30,327 bases of DNA, from positions 1 to 30,327 of the forward strand of contig JBFGLM010000053.1 of assembly GCA_041576165.1 (NCBI GenBank), written 5' to 3'. The position numbers were made by a program, and so were the translations under genes. Under the pieces are notes generated by a model. That model was not told the DNA's origin. It did not search any database and was given only the letters and a program-made list of their open reading frames with translations. Below, piece after piece: positions 999-12,276 of the stretch. Source of the DNA: Acidimicrobiia bacterium (GTDB taxonomy: Bacteria > Actinomycetota > Acidimicrobiia > Spongiisociales > Spongiisociaceae). Position 1 is the stretch's first letter; every line of letters starts with the position of its first letter.

Positions 999-3900
999 AT
1001 GCAGCTCGACGCCAGTGCGGGGATGGCGCAAATACCCGCCGAAGCTTTCGTTCGATACGTACCTCGTGTGCTTGCCGAGTGGGAGTTCGATGCCGGGACG
1101 AGCCACCATCAGGAGATCGACGGCAGCCTCGTCCTCGTCGACATATCGGGCTTCACCCCGCTGTCCGAGCGGCTGGCCCGACGAGGCAGGATTGGTGCGG
1201 AGCAGCTCACCGATGTCCTGAATGCCGTGTTCGGCGACATGCTGCGCACCGTCTACAACCGAGGCGGAGCGCTGGTCAAGTTCGGCGGCGACGCTCTGCT
1301 GCTGTTGTTCCGGGACAAAGACCATGCCCGACAGGCCGCAGATGCTGCAGTTGAGATGCGCGGTGCCCTGCGCTCGAGCACTGCCACCAGGCAGCATCTC
1401 GGTTCGGCCGACCTGCGGCTCACTGCGGGCGTGTACAGCGGGCCCGTCCACCTCTTCCGCCCCGGCTCGATTCACCACGAGCTGATCGTGGCCGGACCCG
1501 GCGCCGACTCGGTGGCACGCTTGGAGAAGCAGGCCAGCCCCGGTCAGATCATGGTCTCGCAACAGACCGCGCTCGCCCTGCCGGCGTCGGCAACCCGGCC
1601 GTCGGACGGTGACGGACTCCTGCTGCGTTGGAGGTCGGCTCGCGGAGCCGAGACCGGGTGGACCGCCCGCCGCAGGGTAGACGACGCAATGGTGCGCAAG
1701 TGCATCCCAATCGCGCTGCGTGAGCATCTGGAGCACGGCCCGCCCGATCCCGACCACCGCCAGGCCGTCGCTGCGTTCGTCTCGTTCACAGGGCTCAGCC
1801 AATTGTTGGAGCGCGAGGGACCAGGGGCGCTGGCAGATCATCTTCAGCGGATTGTCGGTTCGGTGCAGGAGCATGCTCGGGAAGAAGGCGCGACCTTTCT
1901 GGCGACAGATGTCGATCGGGACGGTGGCAAGATCATCCTCGCCACCGGCGTTCCGGCCGCCGGAGAGGATCCGGACGGCCAGATGCTGCGGACGGTCCGC
2001 AGCATCATCGACGACGTCGGTTCCCTGGGTGTTCGTGCGGGTGTGGCGCGAGGCCACGTGTTTGCCGGAGACGTGGGTCTCTCCTATCGGAGGACCTACA
2101 CGGTGATTGGCCGGACCGTGAACATTGCAGCCCGCCTGGCTGCGGCCGCGCCGACCGGATCGCTCTTGACCACAGCGGCCGTCCTCAGCCGTGCGCGACC
2201 GCTGTTCCAGACAAAGCGGCTCGAGCCCATGGCGCTGAAAGGACTCGAGGCACCAATCACCCCGTTTCGGGTAGGAGGCGAGCGGGGGGTGCGACCCGAG
2301 GCGGCCGGCGACGTGCGGTTTGTCGGGCGAAGGTCCGAGCTCGACGCGATCTGCGCGGCGGCGCCCGGGCCGGGGTCGACCGGCGCGGTGTTCGGAGTGG
2401 TGGGGGAGCGAGGTATAGGCAAGACCCGGCTCCTCGCCGAAGTGGCGGGCCGGACACAACTCACCGTGTTCGACATCATTTCAGAGCCATACGGCCAAGA
2501 TGCTCCATATCGCGCCATCCGTGATTCGCTCCGCGCTCTGCTGGGCGTTGAACGGGCTCAGCCAGATCGCATGGCCGCCGAAATCCGCGAAGCGATTGCG
2601 GCGGTTCGTCCGGACCTCGCCGGCCTGGCGCCCCTGATCGCTGCCGCGGCCCACGTACCAATGGATGAGACGCCCGACTCAGCAGTCATCGCGCCGCGGT
2701 TTCGTGTTGCACGTACGGCCGACGTCATCATCGCGTTACTCGAGAAACTCCGGCCCGGCCCCTTGCTGCTCCGCGTGGAAGACGTCCATTGGCTGGATGA
2801 TGCGACCGACCAGCTCGTCCAGCGCCTGGCGGCCGCAGCATCGGATCACCCCTGGCTGGTTGTAGGCACCGGGCGCCGACCACCGCAGTTCAGCCATCAT
2901 CTCATCGAGCTGGCGCCCCTGTCGGATGCCGACGCCGCTGCGATGGTCGAGTCGGCAACAGAACACGCGCCACTGCGTCCGCACGACATCCAAGAGCTCG
3001 TGACACGGGCCGCCGGCAATCCTCTGTTCCTAGAGGAGATGCTCCGGGCGGTCACAGTGGATCCCGACGCAGCCGGCCTCCCCGAGGCGATCGATGCGAT
3101 CGTCACGATTCAGATCGACGCCCTCGACCATGGGTCTCGGCGCATCCTGCGGACGGCCAGCGTGCTCGGCCGCAGTTTTCCCGTGGCCGGACTGGCCGCC
3201 CTGCTGCAGCGCGACGGGGGTGATGCTCTTCGAATGGTGCCAGACGCTCTGACTCCGTTCCTCCGGGATGACGGACGCGGGCGACTCTGGTTCCGTAACG
3301 CCCTGGTCCGCGACGTGGCCTACGCCGGTCTCCCCTTCGCCCGCCGGCGTCGCTTGCACTCCTACGCCGCCGAGGTGGTGGAGGAATACTCGGCGGGAGC
3401 CACAGAAGAGGCCTCACCAACTCTGGCGCTCCATTACGCAGCCGCCGGCGACGACGTCAACGCTTGGCGCTATTCGGTGATGGCTGGGCACCATGCGCGG
3501 GCGGCCCACGCCAACGACGATGCCGCCCAGCATTACCGAAGGGGGTTGGAGGCGGCGAGGCGACTGGCCGCGGTCGACGATGCGGCCCGGGCAGAGGTGT
3601 GGTGGGCGCTCGGTGTGGTGTATGAACAAGCGGGCCGGTTCGAAGATTCCCTCGCCGCCCTGCGGCGGGCATCCCGCCTCTTCCGCGCCGACGGGGTCGC
3701 CGTTGCTCGGATACACGTTGACCGGGCACTGGCCAGGATGCGGATCGGTGCCTATCCGGCCGCGCTGGCCGACATTTCTCGCGGCCTGGGGCTCATCGCT
3801 GACGCAGCCGGCGACGAAGCCGAGTCGGTGAGGTGTCAACTCCTCTCCATCCGAGCCAGCGTCCGGCAGGCGCAGTGGAATTCGGCACTTGCGCTCGAGG

Positions 3901-4775
3901 TCGGCAGCGAGGTGGTAGGGCTCGCCAAGAGGGGACGCGACGACAAGGCGCTGGCGCGGGCCCACAGCGTGCTCCATTGGGCCTCGATCATGCAGGGGCT
4001 TCCCGACGCCGGCGACCATGCCCGCGTCGCGATGGAGATTTACGATGAGCTGGCCGATCTCGATGGGACGGCCCACACCACCAACGCAGTCGGGGCCGAG
4101 GCATATTTCGACGGTCGGTGGGACGACGCCATCGAGGCCTATGAAGCGAGCCGGTCCGCATTCGAGCGTGCCGGCAACGAGACGGGCGCAGCGGTTGCAT
4201 CGAGCAACATCGGCGAGGTCATGGTCAACCAGCGCCGGTTCGAGGATGCCCGCCAACTGCTCGTGTCGGCGGTTCGCACCCTCCAGGCGGCGGGGAGCGC
4301 CAACGACACGCTCTTCGCCGAGATTCAGCTGGCTCGGGCTCTCCGGGGCTTGGGCGAGCAGGCCGCCGCCATCTCTGCGCTGGAAGCGGTGCGTGGCCGG
4401 GCACGACGCGAGGGGCAGGTTTTCGCAGCGGTCGAGGCGGCCCTCCACCTGGCGCACGCGCTCGTCGACGCGGGCCAACTCGGCCGGGCCGGAGCATTGC
4501 TCCGCGAGGCTGAAGACGGCGCCGGCGCCGACGACGTCGTGGTCACAACCACCATTGCACGACTGCAGGCAGAACTGGACATCAGCCGCGGCCGGGCGGC
4601 CGTGGCTCGCCGGCGTCTCGATCGAGCACTCGAGCTGGCGACCGCCCACGGCTTGTTGCACGAACAATTCGAGTGTCGCGAGTTGGCGGCGCGGATGCAC
4701 GACGCCGGTGAAAGGCACGTTCTATCTGACCCCGAGATCAGCCGGCTGGCGGGCCGCCTCGGGATCCAGGTGTGA
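999..4775 (+). CDS. Class III adenylate/guanylate cyclase with two cyclase domains, a STAND-like P-loop NTPase and TPR-like repeats
   Basis: Cyclase 1: LVDISGFT and KFGGDA. Cyclase 2: YTVIGRTVNIAARL. Walker A GERGIGKT, Walker B LLRVEDVHWLD, GNPLFLEE, followed by Ala-rich helical repeats. ATG 999 follows AGAGGAG. Confidence 0.9.
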   Translation: MQLDASAGMAQIPAEAFVRYVPRVLAEWEFDAGTSHHQEIDGSLVLVDISGFTPLSERLARRGRIGAEQLTDVLNAVFGDMLRTVYNRGGALVKFGGDALLLLFRDKDHARQAADAAVEMRGALRSSTATRQHLGSADLRLTAGVYSGPVHLFRPGSIHHELIVAGPGADSVARLEKQASPGQIMVSQQTALALPASATRPSDGDGLLLRWRSARGAETGWTARRRVDDAMVRKCIPIALREHLEHGPPDPDHRQAVAAFVSFTGLSQLLEREGPGALADHLQRIVGSVQEHAREEGATFLATDVDRDGGKIILATGVPAAGEDPDGQMLRTVRSIIDDVGSLGVRAGVARGHVFAGDVGLSYRRTYTVIGRTVNIAARLAAAAPTGSLLTTAAVLSRARPLFQTKRLEPMALKGLEAPITPFRVGGERGVRPEAAGDVRFVGRRSELDAICAAAPGPGSTGAVFGVVGERGIGKTRLLAEVAGRTQLTVFDIISEPYGQDAPYRAIRDSLRALLGVERAQPDRMAAEIREAIAAVRPDLAGLAPLIAAAAHVPMDETPDSAVIAPRFRVARTADVIIALLEKLRPGPLLLRVEDVHWLDDATDQLVQRLAAAASDHPWLVVGTGRRPPQFSHHLIELAPLSDADAAAMVESATEHAPLRPHDIQELVTRAAGNPLFLEEMLRAVTVDPDAAGLPEAIDAIVTIQIDALDHGSRRILRTASVLGRSFPVAGLAALLQRDGGDALRMVPDALTPFLRDDGRGRLWFRNALVRDVAYAGLPFARRRRLHSYAAEVVEEYSAGATEEASPTLALHYAAAGDDVNAWRYSVMAGHHARAAHANDDAAQHYRRGLEAARRLAAVDDAARAEVWWALGVVYEQAGRFEDSLAALRRASRLFRADGVAVARIHVDRALARMRIGAYPAALADISRGLGLIADAAGDEAESVRCQLLSIRASVRQAQWNSALALEVGSEVVGLAKRGRDDKALARAHSVLHWASIMQGLPDAGDHARVAMEIYDELADLDGTAHTTNAVGAEAYFDGRWDDAIEAYEASRSAFERAGNETGAAVASSNIGEVMVNQRRFEDARQLLVSAVRTLQAAGSANDTLFAEIQLARALRGLGEQAAAISALEAVRGRARREGQVFAAVEAALHLAHALVDAGQLGRAGALLREAEDGAGADDVVVTTTIARLQAELDISRGRAAVARRRLDRALELATAHGLLHEQFECRELAARMHDAGERHVLSDPEISRLAGRLGIQV

Positions 4776-4777
4776 TG

Positions 4778-6046
4778 TCAATGCGGCCGGAAATTCGGAT
4801 CGTCTTCTCCGAAGAGGAACCACTCAGTCTGGGTATTGCCGGTGCCGGTGACCGATGTGGTCTCCGACACGATGCAATACGTCTCACCGGCGGGCAGCGT
4901 CGCCCCGATCACGGCTCCCGATGCATTGGTCTGCACGGCCTCGCACCACTGAACCGGCACGAACGCACCGGACCCGTCCTTGTCGTAGTCGATGCCCGTA
5001 TGGAGCCCGTCTGCCTCGGCCGTGGTTGGCAAGAACGTGATCGTCACCAGATAGGCCGCGGATTGGGCTGGTCCGGAAGGAGCGAACGAGACTTCCTCGA
5101 AGGGCGCCGCAGTTGCGTCCAGGTTGTAGGGCTTGGGCACACAGGCCGACCCGTCGGTGTTGTCCAGCCGGGTGACTTCCGCCAAGGGGACGGTGGTGCC
5201 GCTGCCTTCGGTGATGGTCTGGCCGCAGTCCAGTGTCCCGTCGAATTGCTGCACGATGTGGAATAGGGAATCGTTGGTCGACAGGATTTCACCCAGCGAC
5301 GGGGTGCTGGACGGGTTGTCCGGGTCGCACGACGCCGTCACGCAGGCGGCGGTCCCGTCGGCCCCACCTTCGAGCGAGCCGGCGGCGTTGGGCTGGGTCG
5401 CGATGAGCGAGAAAACAATCTGGTCGAAGGTCTCGCCGTTTGATGCCTGGAGCAGCCACCGGAAGTTGTCGCCGTCGGCCGAGTCGGGCCCGCAGTCGGA
5501 CCCGGCAGGCGAGCAGTCCAGAAGCACAGAGTCTTGCAGCACGCCATCCCGCAGCAGGTCGGCCTGAAGGACGGCGTCGAATTTGAGTTCGACGTCGACT
5601 TCGCCGAAGTCCATCACCATTCCGGCCAGCTCGTCGTCGGTGCGAGTCGGATCATCAACCAGAGCCATCGACATTTGCTCGGTGTTGTTCAGCTGGCCGC
5701 AGGGCGCGCCTTGCGAGCCGCTGATGCGCACCCCGAGGCCGTCGTCGAATATCCCGATACTGCCGATCGCGGTGAGCGAGACGAGTGGTCCCGCCACGGT
5801 CAACTGGCATTTCCCGGACGGGGGGCCCACCGGCTGGACGGTTCCGACCGAAAAGCCTCCTGCACCGTCGGCAGGATCAAATCGGAAATAGTCGGAGTCC
5901 GCGCCCAGGTGAAGCCGCAACACGCCCTGCTCGATCATGATCCCGGGGGGCTGGCCCACGGCCTGTCTCGTCAATCCGACGGTCGTCACGACGATCGCGA
6001 CGGCCGTGGTCAGGATGACGACCTTGTTACGGATACGAGCAAACAC
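4778..6046 (-). CDS. Secreted hypothetical protein, Cys/Asp/Thr-rich
   Basis: GTG 6046 follows GGAGGT; signal-peptide-like N-terminus (MFARIRNKVVILTTAVAIVVTTVGL...AVG); 10 Cys in the mature part; DYDKDG motif. Confidence 0.8.
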   Translation of the reverse strand: MFARIRNKVVILTTAVAIVVTTVGLTRQAVGQPPGIMIEQGVLRLHLGADSDYFRFDPADGAGGFSVGTVQPVGPPSGKCQLTVAGPLVSLTAIGSIGIFDDGLGVRISGSQGAPCGQLNNTEQMSMALVDDPTRTDDELAGMVMDFGEVDVELKFDAVLQADLLRDGVLQDSVLLDCSPAGSDCGPDSADGDNFRWLLQASNGETFDQIVFSLIATQPNAAGSLEGGADGTAACVTASCDPDNPSSTPSLGEILSTNDSLFHIVQQFDGTLDCGQTITEGSGTTVPLAEVTRLDNTDGSACVPKPYNLDATAAPFEEVSFAPSGPAQSAAYLVTITFLPTTAEADGLHTGIDYDKDGSGAFVPVQWCEAVQTNASGAVIGATLPAGETYCIVSETTSVTGTGNTQTEWFLFGEDDPNFRPH

Positions 6047-6228
6047 GATCCCACCTCCCAGATCAGACCACAGCGGCTTCCTGAGTGGGGTGTCGCCGCA
6101 GAGGGCGGTGGCACACAGCTCGGGCCGAACCGAGCCCCGCACGGGCGAACTCCCAACCAGCTTCGTCGGAAGCTACACGAGCCGGAGCGGGCCGGCGGGC
6201 GCGGGAGCCACCGTCTCGGCTTCGGCCC

Positions 6229-6648
6229 TCACGGCTCGGCGAGGATCCGCACTCGACCCGTCTGCGAGACCGTGACGTGCGCGCCGTCCCGGATGACCGA
6301 GCACGCCGCAGGCATTACCACCACCGGACATGGACGGTCCGGATACATCTCCGCTGCGACCAAGGCGCCCAGTGCAAGTATCGAGTCGGCCTGTTCCATC
6401 ACCAACGCCACCGGCCCGGTCTGTGCGCGGATGCACTCCGCCAGGACCGAAGAGGACGATGACGATCCTCGCCCGTGGGGGAGCACCAGCACGCAGCCGG
6501 CGGTGCCGGCCCCGGCCCGGGGATGATGTTGATCGGTGATCACTCCGGTGTGAGGGTCGACGCCGCCCCACAGGCTCAACGGCTCACTCAGAACCAGCGC
6601 TGGGCCCTCGGCGTTGCCGGCGACCAGTACGTGGGCGGTCAGTTCCAT
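6229..6648 (-). CDS. Aconitase X small (swivel, DUF126) subunit
   Basis: G.AEGPALVL.EPLSLWGGVDP.TG.I.D.HHP and GRGSSSSSSVL; overlaps the large-subunit stop by 10 bp. Confidence 0.9.
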   Translation of the reverse strand: MELTAHVLVAGNAEGPALVLSEPLSLWGGVDPHTGVITDQHHPRAGAGTAGCVLVLPHGRGSSSSSSVLAECIRAQTGPVALVMEQADSILALGALVAAEMYPDRPCPVVVMPAACSVIRDGAHVTVSQTGRVRILAEP

Positions 6649-7892
6649 TGGTCGTCCAGGTTTCGCACCTCGCCGGCGACGGCCGACTCGACGCATTCCG
6701 TGAGCGAGGCGAAGACGACGTCCAGTCCCAGGTTGCCCGGCGCGTAGTGGGCCCACTTGGCTGAATCAGTCATGGCGGTTCCTTCCCCGTCCAAAATGGC
6801 AGTGACATAAGTACAGGTGTCGGTCACGACCCGCACGCCCAGACGCGCCAGGGCTTCGGCGGCGCCGCTCTCCGCCAGAACCTCGCGACCCGTGTTCACG
6901 TACAGACTCACCCGGGGGCTGACCGCCCGCCCGGCGAGCAGGTGCACCAGTGTCCGGAGTTGCGTGGCCGAGTAATGGGGGGTGCCAAGGTTGATCGTAC
7001 GGAGCGGCCGGTCGCCGCGGCGCAAGGTCAAATCCGCCCGCACCTGCTGGATTCGGCTGGGCGTGACCCCAACGGTGCGCACAATCTCGCCCCGGCCGGA
7101 GGCGGCGTCCAGGGTCGGGGCCTCGGGTGTGACACCGACCACGTGGATCAGGCCGACCGTGCCCGAGGCCGCGGCAGCTGCTCCAAGGGCCTTCAGTTGA
7201 TCCTCTTCGGCGTGGTCGATTCCGACGACCGCCGGCACCGCAAGCTCCGTGTCGCGTCCCACCAGGTATCCCAAGACGGCGAAGAAGGCGTCGCTTGCGC
7301 GGAGATCAGCCGACAAGCCGGACACGTCGTAGGCGACCGTCGCCCATCGGTTGTGGTCGAGGTGGAGGCCTGCGGACGGAGCCCGACCAGTGACGGCGGC
7401 GGCGATGTCGATGAAATCTCCGTACCGGTCGCTGCGGGCTCCCAACACCGAGTTGACGAACGCGATCGCGTTCGATTCTGCCCAGGCCACGTGCTCGCCG
7501 AACCGTGGTCGTTCCGGGAGCTGGTAGGGAGCGCACGTCCACGTCGGGCGACATCCCATGGCAAGGTAGGCGTCCATCAGGCGGCGACTCGCTTCCTGCG
7601 TTGCGAGGTCGGAGCGGATCAGCTCTGGATGGAGCAGGTCTAGAGACGATACGTTGAGCGTGGTGGGAACCGTCACGCTCGCCCCGAGGTCGGCAAGGCG
7701 TGCGGCGTAGTCGAGGATGGCCGGCCCGTGATAGAGGCAGCCATCCACGTGGGCGCCGGAAATGTCAAGCAGCTCTACGGCGCCGACCGTCCGAGCCATA
7801 CCCACCACTATCCGCATGGCCATCGCCGACGCCGGGCCATGCTCGCCTTCCAGCATCGCCTCATCGGCCGCGGACAGTTGCAGCATCGTCAT
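6639..7892 (-). CDS. Aconitase X large (catalytic, DUF521) subunit
   Basis: AHVDGCLY, TCAPY, VAWAESNA...NSVLGAR, LKALGAAAAASG...HVVGVTPEA, DTC and MTDSAKWAHY.PG motifs. Confidence 0.9.
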   Translation of the reverse strand: MTMLQLSAADEAMLEGEHGPASAMAMRIVVGMARTVGAVELLDISGAHVDGCLYHGPAILDYAARLADLGASVTVPTTLNVSSLDLLHPELIRSDLATQEASRRLMDAYLAMGCRPTWTCAPYQLPERPRFGEHVAWAESNAIAFVNSVLGARSDRYGDFIDIAAAVTGRAPSAGLHLDHNRWATVAYDVSGLSADLRASDAFFAVLGYLVGRDTELAVPAVVGIDHAEEDQLKALGAAAAASGTVGLIHVVGVTPEAPTLDAASGRGEIVRTVGVTPSRIQQVRADLTLRRGDRPLRTINLGTPHYSATQLRTLVHLLAGRAVSPRVSLYVNTGREVLAESGAAEALARLGVRVVTDTCTYVTAILDGEGTAMTDSAKWAHYAPGNLGLDVVFASLTECVESAVAGEVRNLDDQWN

Positions 7893-9067: not shown

Positions 9068-9139
9068 GCGCGTCGGCCGATCGGCCCGGACGGCCCTGGA
9101 TTCCAGATTCCGTCACAGCGGCTCGGTATCGTGACCGCC

Positions 9140-10816
9140 ATGCAGGATCGGAGTGAAGCCGCCAGCCGACCCCGGCGAAGCGATCAGCGGACCACCGCCC
9201 AGCACGAGTTGGCGGACGAGTTCGCGTCCGACATTTCGATGGTTCCGGATTCGGACATAGATCTGGGTGCCGGGGAGGGTGCCCGGCGGGGCCCCACCTC
9301 GACCTCGCCCTTCGGCGCGGGCCGGCGGGAAAACCACGACGCATCGGCGTTTTACAACCGGTTCACGCCTCCGGTCATCTCCGACGACGACAGGATCAAC
9401 CCGATCCCGGCGGACGTCGAAGCCCAGCCCTGCCGGCTGGGAGACAGTTGCTCGATGAGTGTCCTGCCGGACAACTGCGTGGCGCTGGTGGTGACCTCGC
9501 CCCCGTATTTCGTGGGCAAGGAGTATGAGGTGGCGGTCACCGGCGATCCGGACACCAAAGCGTCCGCCGGCAGCATCCCGACCTCCTACCTCGACTATCT
9601 GGAGATGTTGCGAGACGTTTTTCGGGAGTGCGTGCGGGTGCTGGAGCCGGGCGGGCGAATTGCGGTCAACGTGGCGAACCTCGGCCGCAAGCCGTATCGC
9701 AGCCTGTCGGCCGATGTGATATCGATCCTCCAGGACGACCTGGGGTTGCTGCTCCGCGGGGAGATAATCTGGCACAAAGCCGATGGTGCCACCGGGTCGG
9801 TGGCGTGGGGGTCGTACAAATCAGCCGCCAACCCGGTGCTCCGCGATCTCACCGAGCGGGTGATCGTTGCGTCGAAAGGCAGGTTCGATCGAGCCCAGGC
9901 AAAAAGCCGCGCCGCGAACGGGCTGCCCTACGAGAACACGCTCAGCGCCGACGACTTCATGGAGGCCACCCTCGACGTGTGGCGCATAGATCCGGAAAGC
10001 GCCCGCCGGGTGAACCATCCGGCACCGTTTCCGATCGAGCTGCCCCGGCGGCTGATCGATCTGTATACCTACCGTGGCGATGTAGTGCTCGATCCGTTCA
10101 TGGGGTCGGGGACGACACTGGTCGCGGCCGCCCGGACCGAGCGCCGGGGGGTGGGGTTCGACACCGAACCGGAGTATGTCGAGATCGCCCGCGCTCGGGT
10201 GGCAAGCGAAAAGGAGCGGCGGCTGCCGCGGGTCTTTGCGTACGACGGCGAGACGCCGCTGCCGCTCCCGATTCCCGATAGTCCCGAGGAGCGGATCGAG
10301 CATTTCCAGGCGCGGGCTACTGAGGAGGGGAAGAAGGCCCACGATCTCGCCAAGACGCTGCTGGAGGAACAAACTGAGTTCGAGATCGTCGCCGAAAACA
10401 CGAAGGTGAAGGGCGCGGGGGTTCAGTTCAATTTCCTGGTGGCGTCGAGCGAGGGGAGGCGATGGTACGTCGACGTGTCGGGAGCCTTCACCACCGTACG
10501 TCCGGGGCTCATGCGAACCGACACGCTGTGGAAGACGCTGGGCCGCATCCATGTCGTCAAGCAACCCCAGTTCGGCGACCACACCGGCCCCGTGGAGGTC
10601 CTCGTGATCACATCCAACCTGCCCAAACCGGGGAGCGAGGGCGACAAGGCGATACGGGCGGTGGGGCCCGCCAACGTGTTCGACGCGATCGAAATCTTCG
10701 ACACGAGCGAAGGGGGTGGCGTCGCCCGGCTCGGCGCGTATGCCACGTTCGGGGATGGGGAGCGGCCGCTGCCCGGATTCTGGACGGATGACGACATCGA
10801 CCAGCGCTACCCCTGA
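9140..10816 (+). CDS. Beta-class amino-DNA methyltransferase (SPPY, probably N4-C) fused to a C-terminal degenerate PD-(D/E)XK-like domain
   Basis: Motif IV VTSPPY precedes HPAPFP and motif I VLDPFMGSGTT (beta order). An extra ~180-aa tail has restriction-fold-like elements (GKKAHDLA..LLEE, GVQFNFLV, WYVDVSG, RPGLMRTDTLWKTLG). ATG 9140 lies 7 nt after TATCGT; GTG 9131 is an alternative start. Confidence 0.88.
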   Translation: MQDRSEAASRPRRSDQRTTAQHELADEFASDISMVPDSDIDLGAGEGARRGPTSTSPFGAGRRENHDASAFYNRFTPPVISDDDRINPIPADVEAQPCRLGDSCSMSVLPDNCVALVVTSPPYFVGKEYEVAVTGDPDTKASAGSIPTSYLDYLEMLRDVFRECVRVLEPGGRIAVNVANLGRKPYRSLSADVISILQDDLGLLLRGEIIWHKADGATGSVAWGSYKSAANPVLRDLTERVIVASKGRFDRAQAKSRAANGLPYENTLSADDFMEATLDVWRIDPESARRVNHPAPFPIELPRRLIDLYTYRGDVVLDPFMGSGTTLVAAARTERRGVGFDTEPEYVEIARARVASEKERRLPRVFAYDGETPLPLPIPDSPEERIEHFQARATEEGKKAHDLAKTLLEEQTEFEIVAENTKVKGAGVQFNFLVASSEGRRWYVDVSGAFTTVRPGLMRTDTLWKTLGRIHVVKQPQFGDHTGPVEVLVITSNLPKPGSEGDKAIRAVGPANVFDAIEIFDTSEGGGVARLGAYATFGDGERPLPGFWTDDDIDQRYP

Positions 10817-10817
10817 C

Positions 10818-11135
10818 ATGAGCGTCGTGGCGTGTGCGGTGGTGCACTCCGTACCGCCATCCGTCTACCTGGCCGTGGACATCGAAGTGCTGCATCGGGT
10901 CCTGGCCCTCGAGGTGGTAGCGCGGACCGACACGGCGTTGTTGGGGACAGCGGTAGCCGACGTACGAGACGCACTCCTCCAGGAGCGGTGGGGGGATGCG
11001 GCCGCGGCCTGGATCAGAGCAACCGGCATCGGCATCGATGTCTACCCCAACATCAGCGTCTATTCGCCCGAGGACCTTCCGCCCGACCTCATCGGGGCGC
11101 AGCTGCAGTTCGCGCCGCTGTTCCGGGCGCCCTGA
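10818..11135 (+). CDS. Hypothetical protein (105 aa), middle gene of the methyltransferase operon
   Basis: ATG is 1 nt after the MTase stop, and its TGA overlaps the next ATG (TGATG 11133-11137); protein-like composition (MSVVACAVVHSVPPSVYLAVD...LQFAPLFRAP). Confidence 0.75.
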   Translation: MSVVACAVVHSVPPSVYLAVDIEVLHRVLALEVVARTDTALLGTAVADVRDALLQERWGDAAAAWIRATGIGIDVYPNISVYSPEDLPPDLIGAQLQFAPLFRAP

Positions 11136-12142
11136 TGGCCTCGATCAGGACCGAGATCACCGAGATAACCACCGGGCTGGCGATGCTCGGGTTTCGGGAT
11201 CTGGCGACGGCGCTGGACGTCGAACCGGCCGCGATCGCGCACGTATCGTCCGAACATTTCACTCGCCTCCGGGACGCCTATGCGAGTGGCGAGAACAAAG
11301 CGGACTTCACGACTGCCTGGGCCAACGGGCGAGCGTTCGCCCGCTCCGGTGACGGGCTGCGGGGCCGCCCGCCGTGGGTGGTCGAATGGAAGGGATCGCA
11401 CAAGCCGCCGGGGTACGAGCAGGTTCCGGCTGATTTGCGGGTCGATCACGTGTACCTGGTGAGCTGCAAATACGGGTCGAACATCCTGCACAACGTATCG
11501 CCGGCCCATCTTTTTGACCGGCTGCTGGTCGAGAGGCCGGGGCGTAGCTCGGACTGGTTCTTGGAGGTGGCCCCCGAGGCCTACCAGGAGTTGTACGACG
11601 CTTGCCGCCGCCATCTCGGCATCCCGGCGCTGCCGGCCGCCGTGGGCGACGTCGGCCCGGACGAGCGACGGCTGCTGAAGGCGGGTCTCAAGCGGCGCTG
11701 GCCCTCCGGAATCCAGCCGGTGTACGAGGCGCTGGCGTACGAGGTCGCCCGCCACTCCGTGGAACGGTGGCGCAGGAATCTGTCATCCCGGGGGCGGCGG
11801 GAGGAAATGGTCTGGCGCCTGCTCCGCTTTCAGGCGTCGCCCTATTTCGTCCTGGGTGCAGCGATGGACGGCACCCCATTGCGATATCGGGTGGCGACGC
11901 CCTGGGACTTCCGGGAGCGGTACCACCTGACCCAGTTCGGCTCATGGCCGGATGTTGCCGGTCAGCCGATCGTCCGGTGGCGGGTAGAGGCCGAGGATAC
12001 GTTGCTGGGCGAAACACAAGCCGTTGAGGGGCACGTCGAGATCCGCTGGAGTCACGGCCGGTTCGGTCAGGTGCCCGAGGCCAAGGTCTACCTGGACAGC
12101 TCCCACCACGGTGTGCCCGGCTACTTCTCACTCGGGGAGTGA
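11135..12142 (+). CDS. Hypothetical protein, putative PD-(D/E)XK-fold (PD...SxK variant) endonuclease
   Basis: 335 aa, TGATG-coupled start; VPADLRVDHVYLVSCKYGS resembles PD...SxK active sites; C-terminal EIRWSHGRF...PEAKVY. The CDS is solid and the function is inferred. Confidence 0.7.
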   Translation: MASIRTEITEITTGLAMLGFRDLATALDVEPAAIAHVSSEHFTRLRDAYASGENKADFTTAWANGRAFARSGDGLRGRPPWVVEWKGSHKPPGYEQVPADLRVDHVYLVSCKYGSNILHNVSPAHLFDRLLVERPGRSSDWFLEVAPEAYQELYDACRRHLGIPALPAAVGDVGPDERRLLKAGLKRRWPSGIQPVYEALAYEVARHSVERWRRNLSSRGRREEMVWRLLRFQASPYFVLGAAMDGTPLRYRVATPWDFRERYHLTQFGSWPDVAGQPIVRWRVEAEDTLLGETQAVEGHVEIRWSHGRFGQVPEAKVYLDSSHHGVPGYFSLGE

Positions 12143-12276
12143 ATAGACACGGCGACGGCAGCCCCGCTTCGAGTTGGATAACTGACCACCGCCTGGAGTA
12201 ACCTTGCGGCTCGGCGCTGCACGCGGGCAGTGCCGATTTGTTGTTCAGGGCATTGCCAGGATTGGAGTCAGGCACC

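Follow-up and report, generated by a model that had tools for sequence, protein, structure and literature searches.

A candidate restriction-modification-derived operon with an apparent DNA-damage-type promoter around a near-universal methylase of Acidimicrobiia

The DNA analyzed here, hereafter the window, is a 30,327-nt stretch (positions 1–30,327) of contig JBFGLM010000053.1 from the genome of an Acidimicrobiia bacterium (assembly GCA_041576165.1, G000 in our set), and our subject is an operon of three genes on its forward strand. Gene 1 (9140–10816) encodes, from the ATG at 9140, a 558-aa beta-class DNA methylase with a pseudonuclease tail; an alternative GTG start lies upstream at 9131. 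Gene 2 (10818–11135) encodes 105 aa of no known family, and gene 3 (11135–12142) encodes a 335-aa restriction-endonuclease-like protein. A preliminary description of this DNA had proposed that the three co-oriented reading frames form an undescribed restriction-modification (R-M)-like system, and its account of their arrangement is accurate. The gene 1 TGA (10814–10816) is separated from the gene 2 ATG (10818) by 1 nt, and in the TGATG at 11133–11137 the gene 2 TGA (11133–11135) overlaps the gene 3 ATG (11135–11137). A terminator-like hairpin on the same strand (12211–12246), with a 10-pair stem that includes 7 GC pairs and is followed by T-rich TTTGTTGTTC, lies 69 nt past the gene 3 stop and is the probable end of the operon. 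The composition looks native, as had been suggested: the GC content of the operon (0.65–0.67) agrees with that of its flanks (0.62–0.69) and of the genome (0.653).

Database homologues number 3685 for gene 3 (all unnamed), 295 for gene 2 (∼70% identity, likewise all unnamed), and 462 proteins for the fusion of tail and methylase, and because of these counts we regard all three as real genes. Scanning species genomes for relatives of gene 3 gave hits in at least 597, and the best 80 loci, almost all from Acidimicrobiia, were compared. The full trio of tail-bearing methylase, gene 2, and gene 3 is present in 51 of these 80 related loci, methylase with tail and gene 3 in 8, methylase and gene 3 in 3, and gene 3 alone in 12, where 5 kb or more of the contig lies upstream; for the other 6 the contig is too short to tell. 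The methylase thus stands upstream of gene 3 in 62 of the 80, the rest being mostly solitary gene 3 copies or truncated contigs. Since the trio recurs in this way, it is a real and conserved unit, and it lies outside the descriptions in Pfam, NCBIfam, and PADLOC. No library entry matched it as a system, and PADLOC gave a strong match for the methylase only, in keeping with the earlier suggestion that the system had not been described. Two of the loci come from metagenome-assembled genomes (MAGs) labelled Gammaproteobacteria (L043) and Acidobacteria (L028); their operons nest among those of Acidimicrobiia, and the labels are likely the result of mislabelled or chimeric bins.

Gene 1 is assigned to the beta class, as the preliminary description had recognized, because its motif IV, SPPY (aa 120–123, nt 9497–9508), precedes its S-adenosylmethionine-binding motif I, DPFMGSGTT (aa 318–326, nt 10091–10117). 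The motif order and a family profile above its cut-off both agree with a beta-class amino-methyltransferase: Pfam N6_N4_Mtase (PF01555) matches aa 114–350 (nt 9479–10189) with E = 4.6e-40 and 138.4 bits against a cut-off of 26.7, and PADLOC MTase_II (PDLC03350) matches aa 48–361 with E = 9.9e-81. A search of this genome with four DNA-methylase Pfam families (PF01555, PF02384, PF02086, and PF00145) returned gene 1 alone. In N4-cytosine methylases, motif IV usually takes the form SPP(Y/F). Among solved chains, the nearest is 2zie (TTHA0409; E = 2.1e-31), a protein termed a putative N4-cytosine methyltransferase (PMC5173035), and the N4-cytosine enzyme N4CMT is reported to have SPPY where CcrM has DPPY (PMC10406627). 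Gene 1 is probably an N4-cytosine DNA methylase.

The tail of gene 1 (aa ∼387–558, nt ∼10298–10813) is a PD-(D/E)XK-fold domain whose active site is degenerate. Its AlphaFold2 (AF2) model, built from 38 sequences, has a predicted local distance difference test (pLDDT) score of 82.9. The best structural matches by VIA-align (Z 9.3–8.0) all have the restriction-endonuclease fold, beginning with XisH-like 2okf (Z 9.3), Cdn1 (8.5), AF1548 (8.4), BsoBI (8.3), and BstEII (8.3) and continuing with Can2, SfsA, and BsaWI. The small subunit of BspD6I (Z 7.4) and BbvCI (Z 6.0) are also among the matches, and Foldseek against the PDB returned weak rows of the same restriction-endonuclease kind. Two segments of the tail, GVQFNF (10418–10435) and YVDVSG (10466–10483), correspond to GVEID and FEYKG in stand-alone paralogues, and N and DxS occur in every aligned tail where these paralogues, taken from loci L117 and L120, have D and ExK. 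The fold of an active PD-(D/E)XK enzyme is therefore present and its catalytic residues are not. By this alignment the tail and the small PD-(D/E)XK nucleases are paralogues, of which the tail is the inactivated one; it is a pseudonuclease, as the preliminary description had it, and would act like a scaffold rather than like an enzyme.

The stand-alone paralogues themselves are small proteins of 138–142 aa (27–29% identity to the tail, E = 1e-9 to 8e-7) with an intact D...ExK. In three genomes they follow gene 2 and occupy the place of gene 3 (L117, 3906–4334; L120, 3146–3562; L118, ∼3544–3936 on the reverse strand). In a further locus, L119, the unit ends with gene 2. When compared by hhalign, with a column cut slightly off, the tail and gene 3 appear unrelated (probability 0.2).

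Gene 2 had been described as lacking any recognizable motif, and this holds: no family, helix-turn-helix (HTH) families included, was found in Pfam, NCBIfam, or PADLOC at E values up to 1. A gene 2 profile matched no PDB sequence at E values up to 10, XisI-type entries included, and an Atlas search returned unnamed clusters only. As a joint identity for tail and gene 2, XisH/XisI was considered and rejected, there being fold support for the tail alone and none for gene 2. The distribution of gene 2 was followed in a class sample of 201 Acidimicrobiia genomes from 114 genera, all at least 90% complete (tallies include G028 and G203). It is present in 25 of the 201, 19 of which also have gene 3, and it lies directly downstream of a tail-bearing methylase wherever both sit on one contig.

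For gene 3, a confident AF2 model from 46 sequences has a pLDDT of 95.8 and a predicted template modeling (pTM) score of 0.91. In a VIA-align comparison with 48,161 chains, HinP1I (Z 6.5, 188 residues aligned) and MspI (Z 5.5, 176 residues) took the first two ranks; Hjc (Z 4.2) and, at rank 5, HhaI (Z 4.1, 140 aligned) are followed by other restriction-fold proteins. MspI, HinP1I, and HhaI have been grouped as one structural family of monomeric 4-bp cutters (PMC7026639). The model contains a catalytic sheet and a second sheet, plus a helical insert of ∼100 residues. The candidate active site, drawn from conserved columns, consists of E10, D100, and S110-x-K112 (motif at nt 11426–11473), and the PAD...SCK noted earlier is present as P98-A-D100...S110-C-K112. 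The conserved columns include E10, P98, D100, S110, C111, K112, E302-R304-W305-H307, and E315-K317, the last two groups in conserved C-terminal sheet motifs (HVEIRWSHGRF, 12032–12064; PEAKVY, 12074–12091). A few family members have QxK in place of SxK.

The PADLOC profile REase_II (PDLC03456) weakly matches 34 of the 46 family members, the best with E = 2.6e-6 and the window protein with E = 0.008. A Pfam scan of all 46 members at E values up to 10 gave no recurrent family, RE_HaeIII being found in 0 of 46, and because of that result a language-model indication from the Atlas, which linked gene 3 to a cluster with RE_HaeIII in 10% of its members, stays a lead only. PDB sequence and profile searches yielded nothing meaningful and no relation to MspI, HinP1I, or HhaI. 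From the structure scan and the PADLOC matches, gene 3 looks like a restriction-type PD-(D/E)XK nuclease, which is what its motif had first suggested.

The operon has an apparent promoter of the PafBC DNA-damage type. At 9112–9132 on the forward strand, GTCACA (9112–9117) is followed after 9 nt by a −10 hexamer, TATCGT (9127–9132), giving the layout GTCac-N10-TA-N3-T. Only 7 nt separate the hexamer from the ATG at 9140, and the transcript is therefore predicted to be leaderless. The preliminary description had placed a leaderless-type promoter at this hexamer; its position stands, and what would change is its kind. The motif published for mycobacterial PafBC is tGTCgg(N10)tA(N3)T, which combines a PafBC element at −26 with a SigA −10 (PMC8635444). 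Measured against that mycobacterial consensus, the GTC, the 10-nt spacing, and the TAnnnT agree, and the next two bases are AC rather than GG.

Upstream regions of related methylase genes commonly share tGTCACAcccc, a short spacer, and TAnnnT or cAnnnT, often with 7 nt and then ATG; of 62 related loci, 43 have GTCACA itself ahead of the methylase. A strict box, GTC[AG][CG]-N10-TAN3T, was sought within 400 nt upstream, where ∼0.013 occurrences are expected per region from base composition. It was found at 12 of 13 methylase-gene 3 operons from a set of close relatives, at 30 of 60 wider loci, at 3 of 6 unlinked genes for methylase plus tail, at 1 of 19 methylase genes from methylase-only genomes, at 0 of 13 solitary gene 3 copies (200 nt searched), and at 0 of 4 methylase-gene 2 loci that lack gene 3, 3 of which have the small nuclease after gene 2. 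An ATG or GTG lies 6–9 nt past the −10 in 19 of 43 strict boxes (the locus sets L013–L025 and L026–L105 overlap, so that some genomes count double), which fits leaderless transcripts and the ATG 9140 start. Some solitary gene 3 copies have a TTGACA...TTAGAG promoter-like site and no damage box.

Within the genome of the window, a looser pattern (GTCACA-N8–10-TAN3T) heads genes for a RecB-like PDDEXK_1 nuclease, a NurA-like protein, a RadA-like ATPase, a UvrD-type helicase, a NERD protein, and three DUF222/HNH proteins, as well as this operon, often with a leaderless start. The genes other than the operon lie at C4:17244–18047 (+), C4:100627–101655 (−), C4 from ∼22362 onward (+), C6:32857–34158 (−), C16:7317–8423 (+), C70:20000–21208 (+), C78:9514–10656 (−), and C95:4259–4951 (−). 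Two adjacent, pafBC-like WYL-domain genes are found at C32:15518–16638. In this Acidimicrobiia genome, the boxed repair and nuclease genes are together a candidate for a DNA-damage regulon of the PafBC type. A non-exhaustive literature search found no report of a methylase-nuclease operon in a PafBC regulon.

Just upstream of the promoter box lies the palindrome CTGGA-T-TCCAG (CTGGATTCCAG, 9096–9106), to which the preliminary description had drawn attention. It is where it was said to be, and it is not conserved: among 63 upstream regions of related methylase genes, the only exact copy is that of the window itself. We therefore rejected it as an operator. A palindrome of 5 + 5 nt inside a short spacer is within chance, and this one is probably incidental.

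The methylase core is near-universal in Acidimicrobiia, and genes 2 and 3 are accessory. In the class sample the methylase occurs in 176 of 201 genomes (106 of 114 genera), including 12 of 12 genomes of ∼1 Mb, gene 3 in 40 genomes (34 genera), and gene 2 in its 25 genomes from 20 genera. Three families are poor in the methylase (f25, 0 of 6; f24, 1 of 9; f18, 15 of 24), mostly with small genomes of 1.5–2.6 Mb. The freshwater Acidimicrobiia MAG BS4 (CL500-29 group) is reported, from low coverage, to lack both methylated motifs and a methylase (PMC6329791). An identity of BS4 with these methylase-lacking lineages is a candidate link only.

Among 41 relatives' genomes, this one included, the methylase is present in 36 and gene 3 in 14, and all 14 carriers of gene 3 have the methylase; at the 13 loci fetched from this set, the methylase is immediately upstream of gene 3 in every one. 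The full three-gene order, whose conservation the preliminary description had anticipated, is kept at 4 of these 13, as it is at the 51 wider loci. Eight others have a tail-less methylase without gene 2, and at the last gene 3 is broken by an insertion sequence (IS). There (L025, G007:C1:765526–777660), gene 3 fragments at 6007–6135 and 7414–7548 enclose an IS630-like open reading frame with DDE_3 and HTH domains (6319–7416), and the methylase is intact. Solitary gene 3 copies conform as well, since 5 of 5 tested genomes that carry one have a gene for methylase plus tail elsewhere, without an adjoining gene 2 or gene 3. Thus, in the genomes examined (14 of 14 relatives and 5 of 5 with a solitary gene 3) there is no case of gene 3 without the methylase.

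Around the operon, flanking genes vary between genera, and no synteny was found between the window flanks and the 13 related loci. No transposase genes lie near the operon in the window. The earlier remark that mobility genes do not flank it thus holds for the window, and it does not extend to related loci, which have IS elements nearby and, in the case just given, inside gene 3. Genes or fragments of rve integrase-core transposases also lie within 2–3 kb of the methylase-gene 3 pair in two of them, both on the reverse strand (L015, 3409–4260; L016, 4299–4658). Solitary gene 3 copies sit in conserved housekeeping neighborhoods of two groups: between nadE and glnA, the NAD synthase and glutamine synthetase genes (L060, L063, L064, and L076), or beside carD and a PolB-exonuclease-like gene (L096, L099–L102, and L104).

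A quick tree of 100 methylase cores (3 duplicates dropped; loci without a stop-free match of >280 residues left out) shows that the layouts cluster yet intermix, with at least 16 label changes over the 100 rows. The window methylase falls within a 25-row clade of full trios (support 98), apart from the genomes of its own family. It has 82% identity to L034, among full trios from unplaced MAGs; its own family has the tail-less two-gene form. The genome of the window is rated 7.5% contaminated, and the tree placement points to either operon transfer or a misbinned contig. A literature search aimed at an Acidimicrobiia methylase-nuclease system yielded only PMC8919816 and PMC6329791, and no description of this operon was found in either.

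A metagenomic methylome study found both CGCG and BAAAA methylated in every Acidimicrobiia genome that it recovered, and it verified two BAAAA N6-adenine methylases experimentally (PMC8919816). Because CGCG is methylated throughout that set, our leading guess for the target of gene 1 is N4-methylcytosine at CGCG. The SPPY motif, the N4-cytosine-like nearest solved relative, and the resemblance of gene 3 to 4-bp cutters of CG sites are points for it.

We favor, at a little better than even odds (roughly 55%), the reading that this operon is a damage-inducible, R-M-derived module built around a class-wide methylase. Its R-M side rests on the facts that the nuclease never occurs without the methylase, that the methylase is often alone, and that the nuclease has been lost by IS insertion. 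Its unusual traits are a methylase that is class-wide, a dead nuclease domain fused to it, a gene 2 tied to that domain, an exchangeable nuclease, and an apparent damage-type promoter, which appears only where methylase and gene 3 share an operon. Under this reading, gene 1 would methylate a short site as N4-methylcytosine, CGCG being favored, and gene 3 would cleave that site when unmethylated. A PafBC-like activator would induce methylase and nuclease together on single-stranded or damaged DNA, as in phage infection or genotoxic stress. The dead tail and gene 2 may serve to dock or control the nuclease partner. Where a small active paralogue of the tail replaces gene 3, as it does in sister loci, this paralogue could pair with the tail. 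The idea of an R-M-like system thus survives in the conserved trio and changes in another respect: the methylase does not belong to a mobile system alone but is the orthologue of an enzyme present across the class (176 of 201 genomes). Nor is this a fixed three-part system, as gene 2, the tail, and gene 3 are each dispensable in some lineages.

Several observations weigh against this module. First, as to gene 3, its Z scores of 6.5 and 5.5 are modest and within the grey zone of VIA-align, Foldseek against the PDB gave nothing usable, and most family members carry a serine where the second catalytic acid would be, so its activity is not assured. Its identity, 50–60% across an order and lower across the class, is high for a restriction enzyme. 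In 12 of the 80 loci it is solitary, in a housekeeping setting with an ordinary promoter, which is more like a domesticated gene than a defense island. Second, the promoter box has GTCac instead of GTCgg, is missing from the 4 variants of the methylase-gene 2-small nuclease kind, and in its loose form shows no excess genome-wide, with 22 occurrences where composition predicts 29. Third, gene 1 could alternatively be the N6-adenine enzyme that makes BAAAA across the class; one Acidimicrobiia MAG is reported to have a single detected methylase, which makes BAAAA (PMC8919816). Finally, genome-wide palindrome statistics gave no clearly avoided site, with observed/expected ratios of 0.75 for CGCG and 0.52 for CTAG.

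In its fullest form, our interpretation would make N4-methyl-CGCG a class-wide mark that is policed by a PafBC-induced, exchangeable nuclease, docked via the dead tail with gene 2 as adaptor, such that cleavage needs the complex. As a whole we consider this version rather unlikely. The contacts among tail, gene 2, and nuclease are conjecture, and so is the multi-subunit nature that the preliminary description had proposed. Complex prediction for the tail with gene 3 and gene 2, scored on gene 2 and run without controls, twice returned 0.00 (mark, 0.32) and gives no verdict in either direction.

The strongest rival, possible although we doubt it, is a DNA-repair module. Here damage-induced gene 3 would act on the cell's own DNA at breaks or lesions, perhaps reading the methyl mark for strand or age, with the tail and gene 2 as a tether. 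MutH uses Dam methylation for strand discrimination. Such a role would suit a methylase that is class-wide, as Dam or CcrM is, and a promoter type shared with RadA-like, UvrD-like, NurA-like, NERD, RecB-like, and HNH/DUF222 genes. It would suit gene 3 as well, in that its identity drops with taxonomic distance and it stands alone in conserved housekeeping contexts at 12 of 80 loci. However, solitary copies lack the box (0 of 13), which means that gene 3 is not invariably damage-inducible. The absence of gene 3 from 161 of 201 class genomes would be odd for a core repair function, the persistence of the methylase in the genome where an IS knocks out gene 3 is what is expected of a dispensable restriction gene, and it is a restriction-enzyme profile that matches 34 of 46 gene 3 members.

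An improbable alternative is accidental fusion, in which a housekeeping methylase captured a cassette of the XisH/XisI or toxin-antitoxin type, composed of a tail-like nuclease and gene 2, with gene 3 as a passenger. XisH-like 2okf is indeed the top structural match of the tail (Z 9.3), gene 2 has the size of a small partner and always lies behind the tail, active stand-alone paralogues of the tail directly follow gene 2, and architecture changes frequently (the at least 16 label changes per 100 rows). Against this, the catalytic residues are gone in every aligned tail, and thus the fused tail is not an active toxin or nuclease. Gene 2 matches no solved chain, XisI-type chains included, at E values up to 10, and 51 of 80 loci keep the order of tail-bearing methylase, gene 2, and gene 3, with stops coupled to starts. 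Last, an orphan epigenetic methylase with functionally unrelated neighbors in genes 2 and 3 would explain why most genomes have the methylase without gene 3 and then with a different promoter (box 1 of 19), but we disfavor it as very improbable, given the same order and strand across many genera, the translational coupling, and the lack of any genome found with gene 3 and no methylase.

Acidimicrobiia are abundant in soil, sea, and wastewater and almost uncultured. The operon may be relevant in several respects. First, it supplies a candidate gene for one class-wide methylated motif of the published metagenomic methylome. Second, a methylase that occurs with or without a nuclease partner offers a natural series leading from restriction systems to housekeeping methylases such as CcrM and Dam. 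Third, its parts would be new: gene 3 belongs to a restriction-like nuclease family outside Pfam, NCBIfam, and PADLOC, and gene 1 joins a methylase to an inactivated nuclease, an active paralogue of which takes the place of gene 3 in sister loci. Finally, the apparent control of a methylase-nuclease operon by the actinobacterial DNA-damage activator would also be new and would tie defense, or cleavage of self-DNA, to the damage response.

It is useful to compare the operon with known systems. In type IIG enzymes, an active nuclease is N-terminal to a gamma-class methylase. Like these and type IIC enzymes, gene 1 joins a nuclease fold and a methylase in one polypeptide, but its nuclease is degenerate and C-terminal to a methylase of the beta class. 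MspI, HinP1I, and HhaI are each partnered by a C5 methylase. These orthodox type II R-M systems likewise have separate adjoining genes for methylase and nuclease, and in them, as here, the nuclease is never found without the methylase and the methylase is often solitary; the linkage of 13 of 13 relatives' loci and 62 of 80 wider loci is of the type II kind. The gene 3 model has a catalytic sheet and a second sheet, and its best structural matches, at modest Z scores, are these three enzymes; the HhaI motif SD-X11-EAK (PMC7026639) resembles AD-X9-SCK of gene 3. They differ in having no sequence relation to gene 3, which has serine for the second acid and the ∼100-residue helical insert, and in their partners, which here are replaced by a beta-class amino-methylase that is class-wide instead of strain-specific. 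The pseudonuclease tail, gene 2, and the damage-type promoter are further additions to the orthodox plan, so that the layout is, as first proposed, neither that of orthodox type II nor that of type IIG.

For gene 2, the natural comparison is with the C proteins of R-M systems, small HTH proteins encoded before the nuclease gene; size and position fit, whereas the HTH search was negative. BbvCI, BspD6I, and BsrDI/BtsI are heterodimeric restriction enzymes in which one subunit is inactive or small. They indicate that a nuclease-fold unit may pair with a related one, and the sister loci with an active tail paralogue after gene 2 have both units. Unlike in these enzymes, the inactive unit here is fused to the methylase, the partner in the window, gene 3, is not a paralogue of the tail, and any pairing is conjectural. 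The RecA-independent PafBC regulon of mycobacteria has a bipartite signal, GTC at about −26 plus TAnnnT, and the candidate regulon here resembles it in this layout with identical spacing, in the tandem pair of WYL-domain genes in the genome, and in its boxed genes for DNA-repair enzymes and DUF222/HNH proteins. The candidate differs in its GTCac, where mycobacteria have GTCgg, and in its host, which belongs to another class of Actinomycetota. Finally, CcrM, like gene 1, is a beta-class enzyme kept across a whole bacterial class, and it also has a C-terminal extension, which in CcrM binds the non-target strand (PMC6787082, PMC10406627) and does not have a nuclease fold. CcrM is a DPPY enzyme that makes N6-methyladenine and has no operon with a nuclease partner, whereas the methylase of Acidimicrobiia is accompanied by a nuclease-like partner in about one-fifth of genomes.

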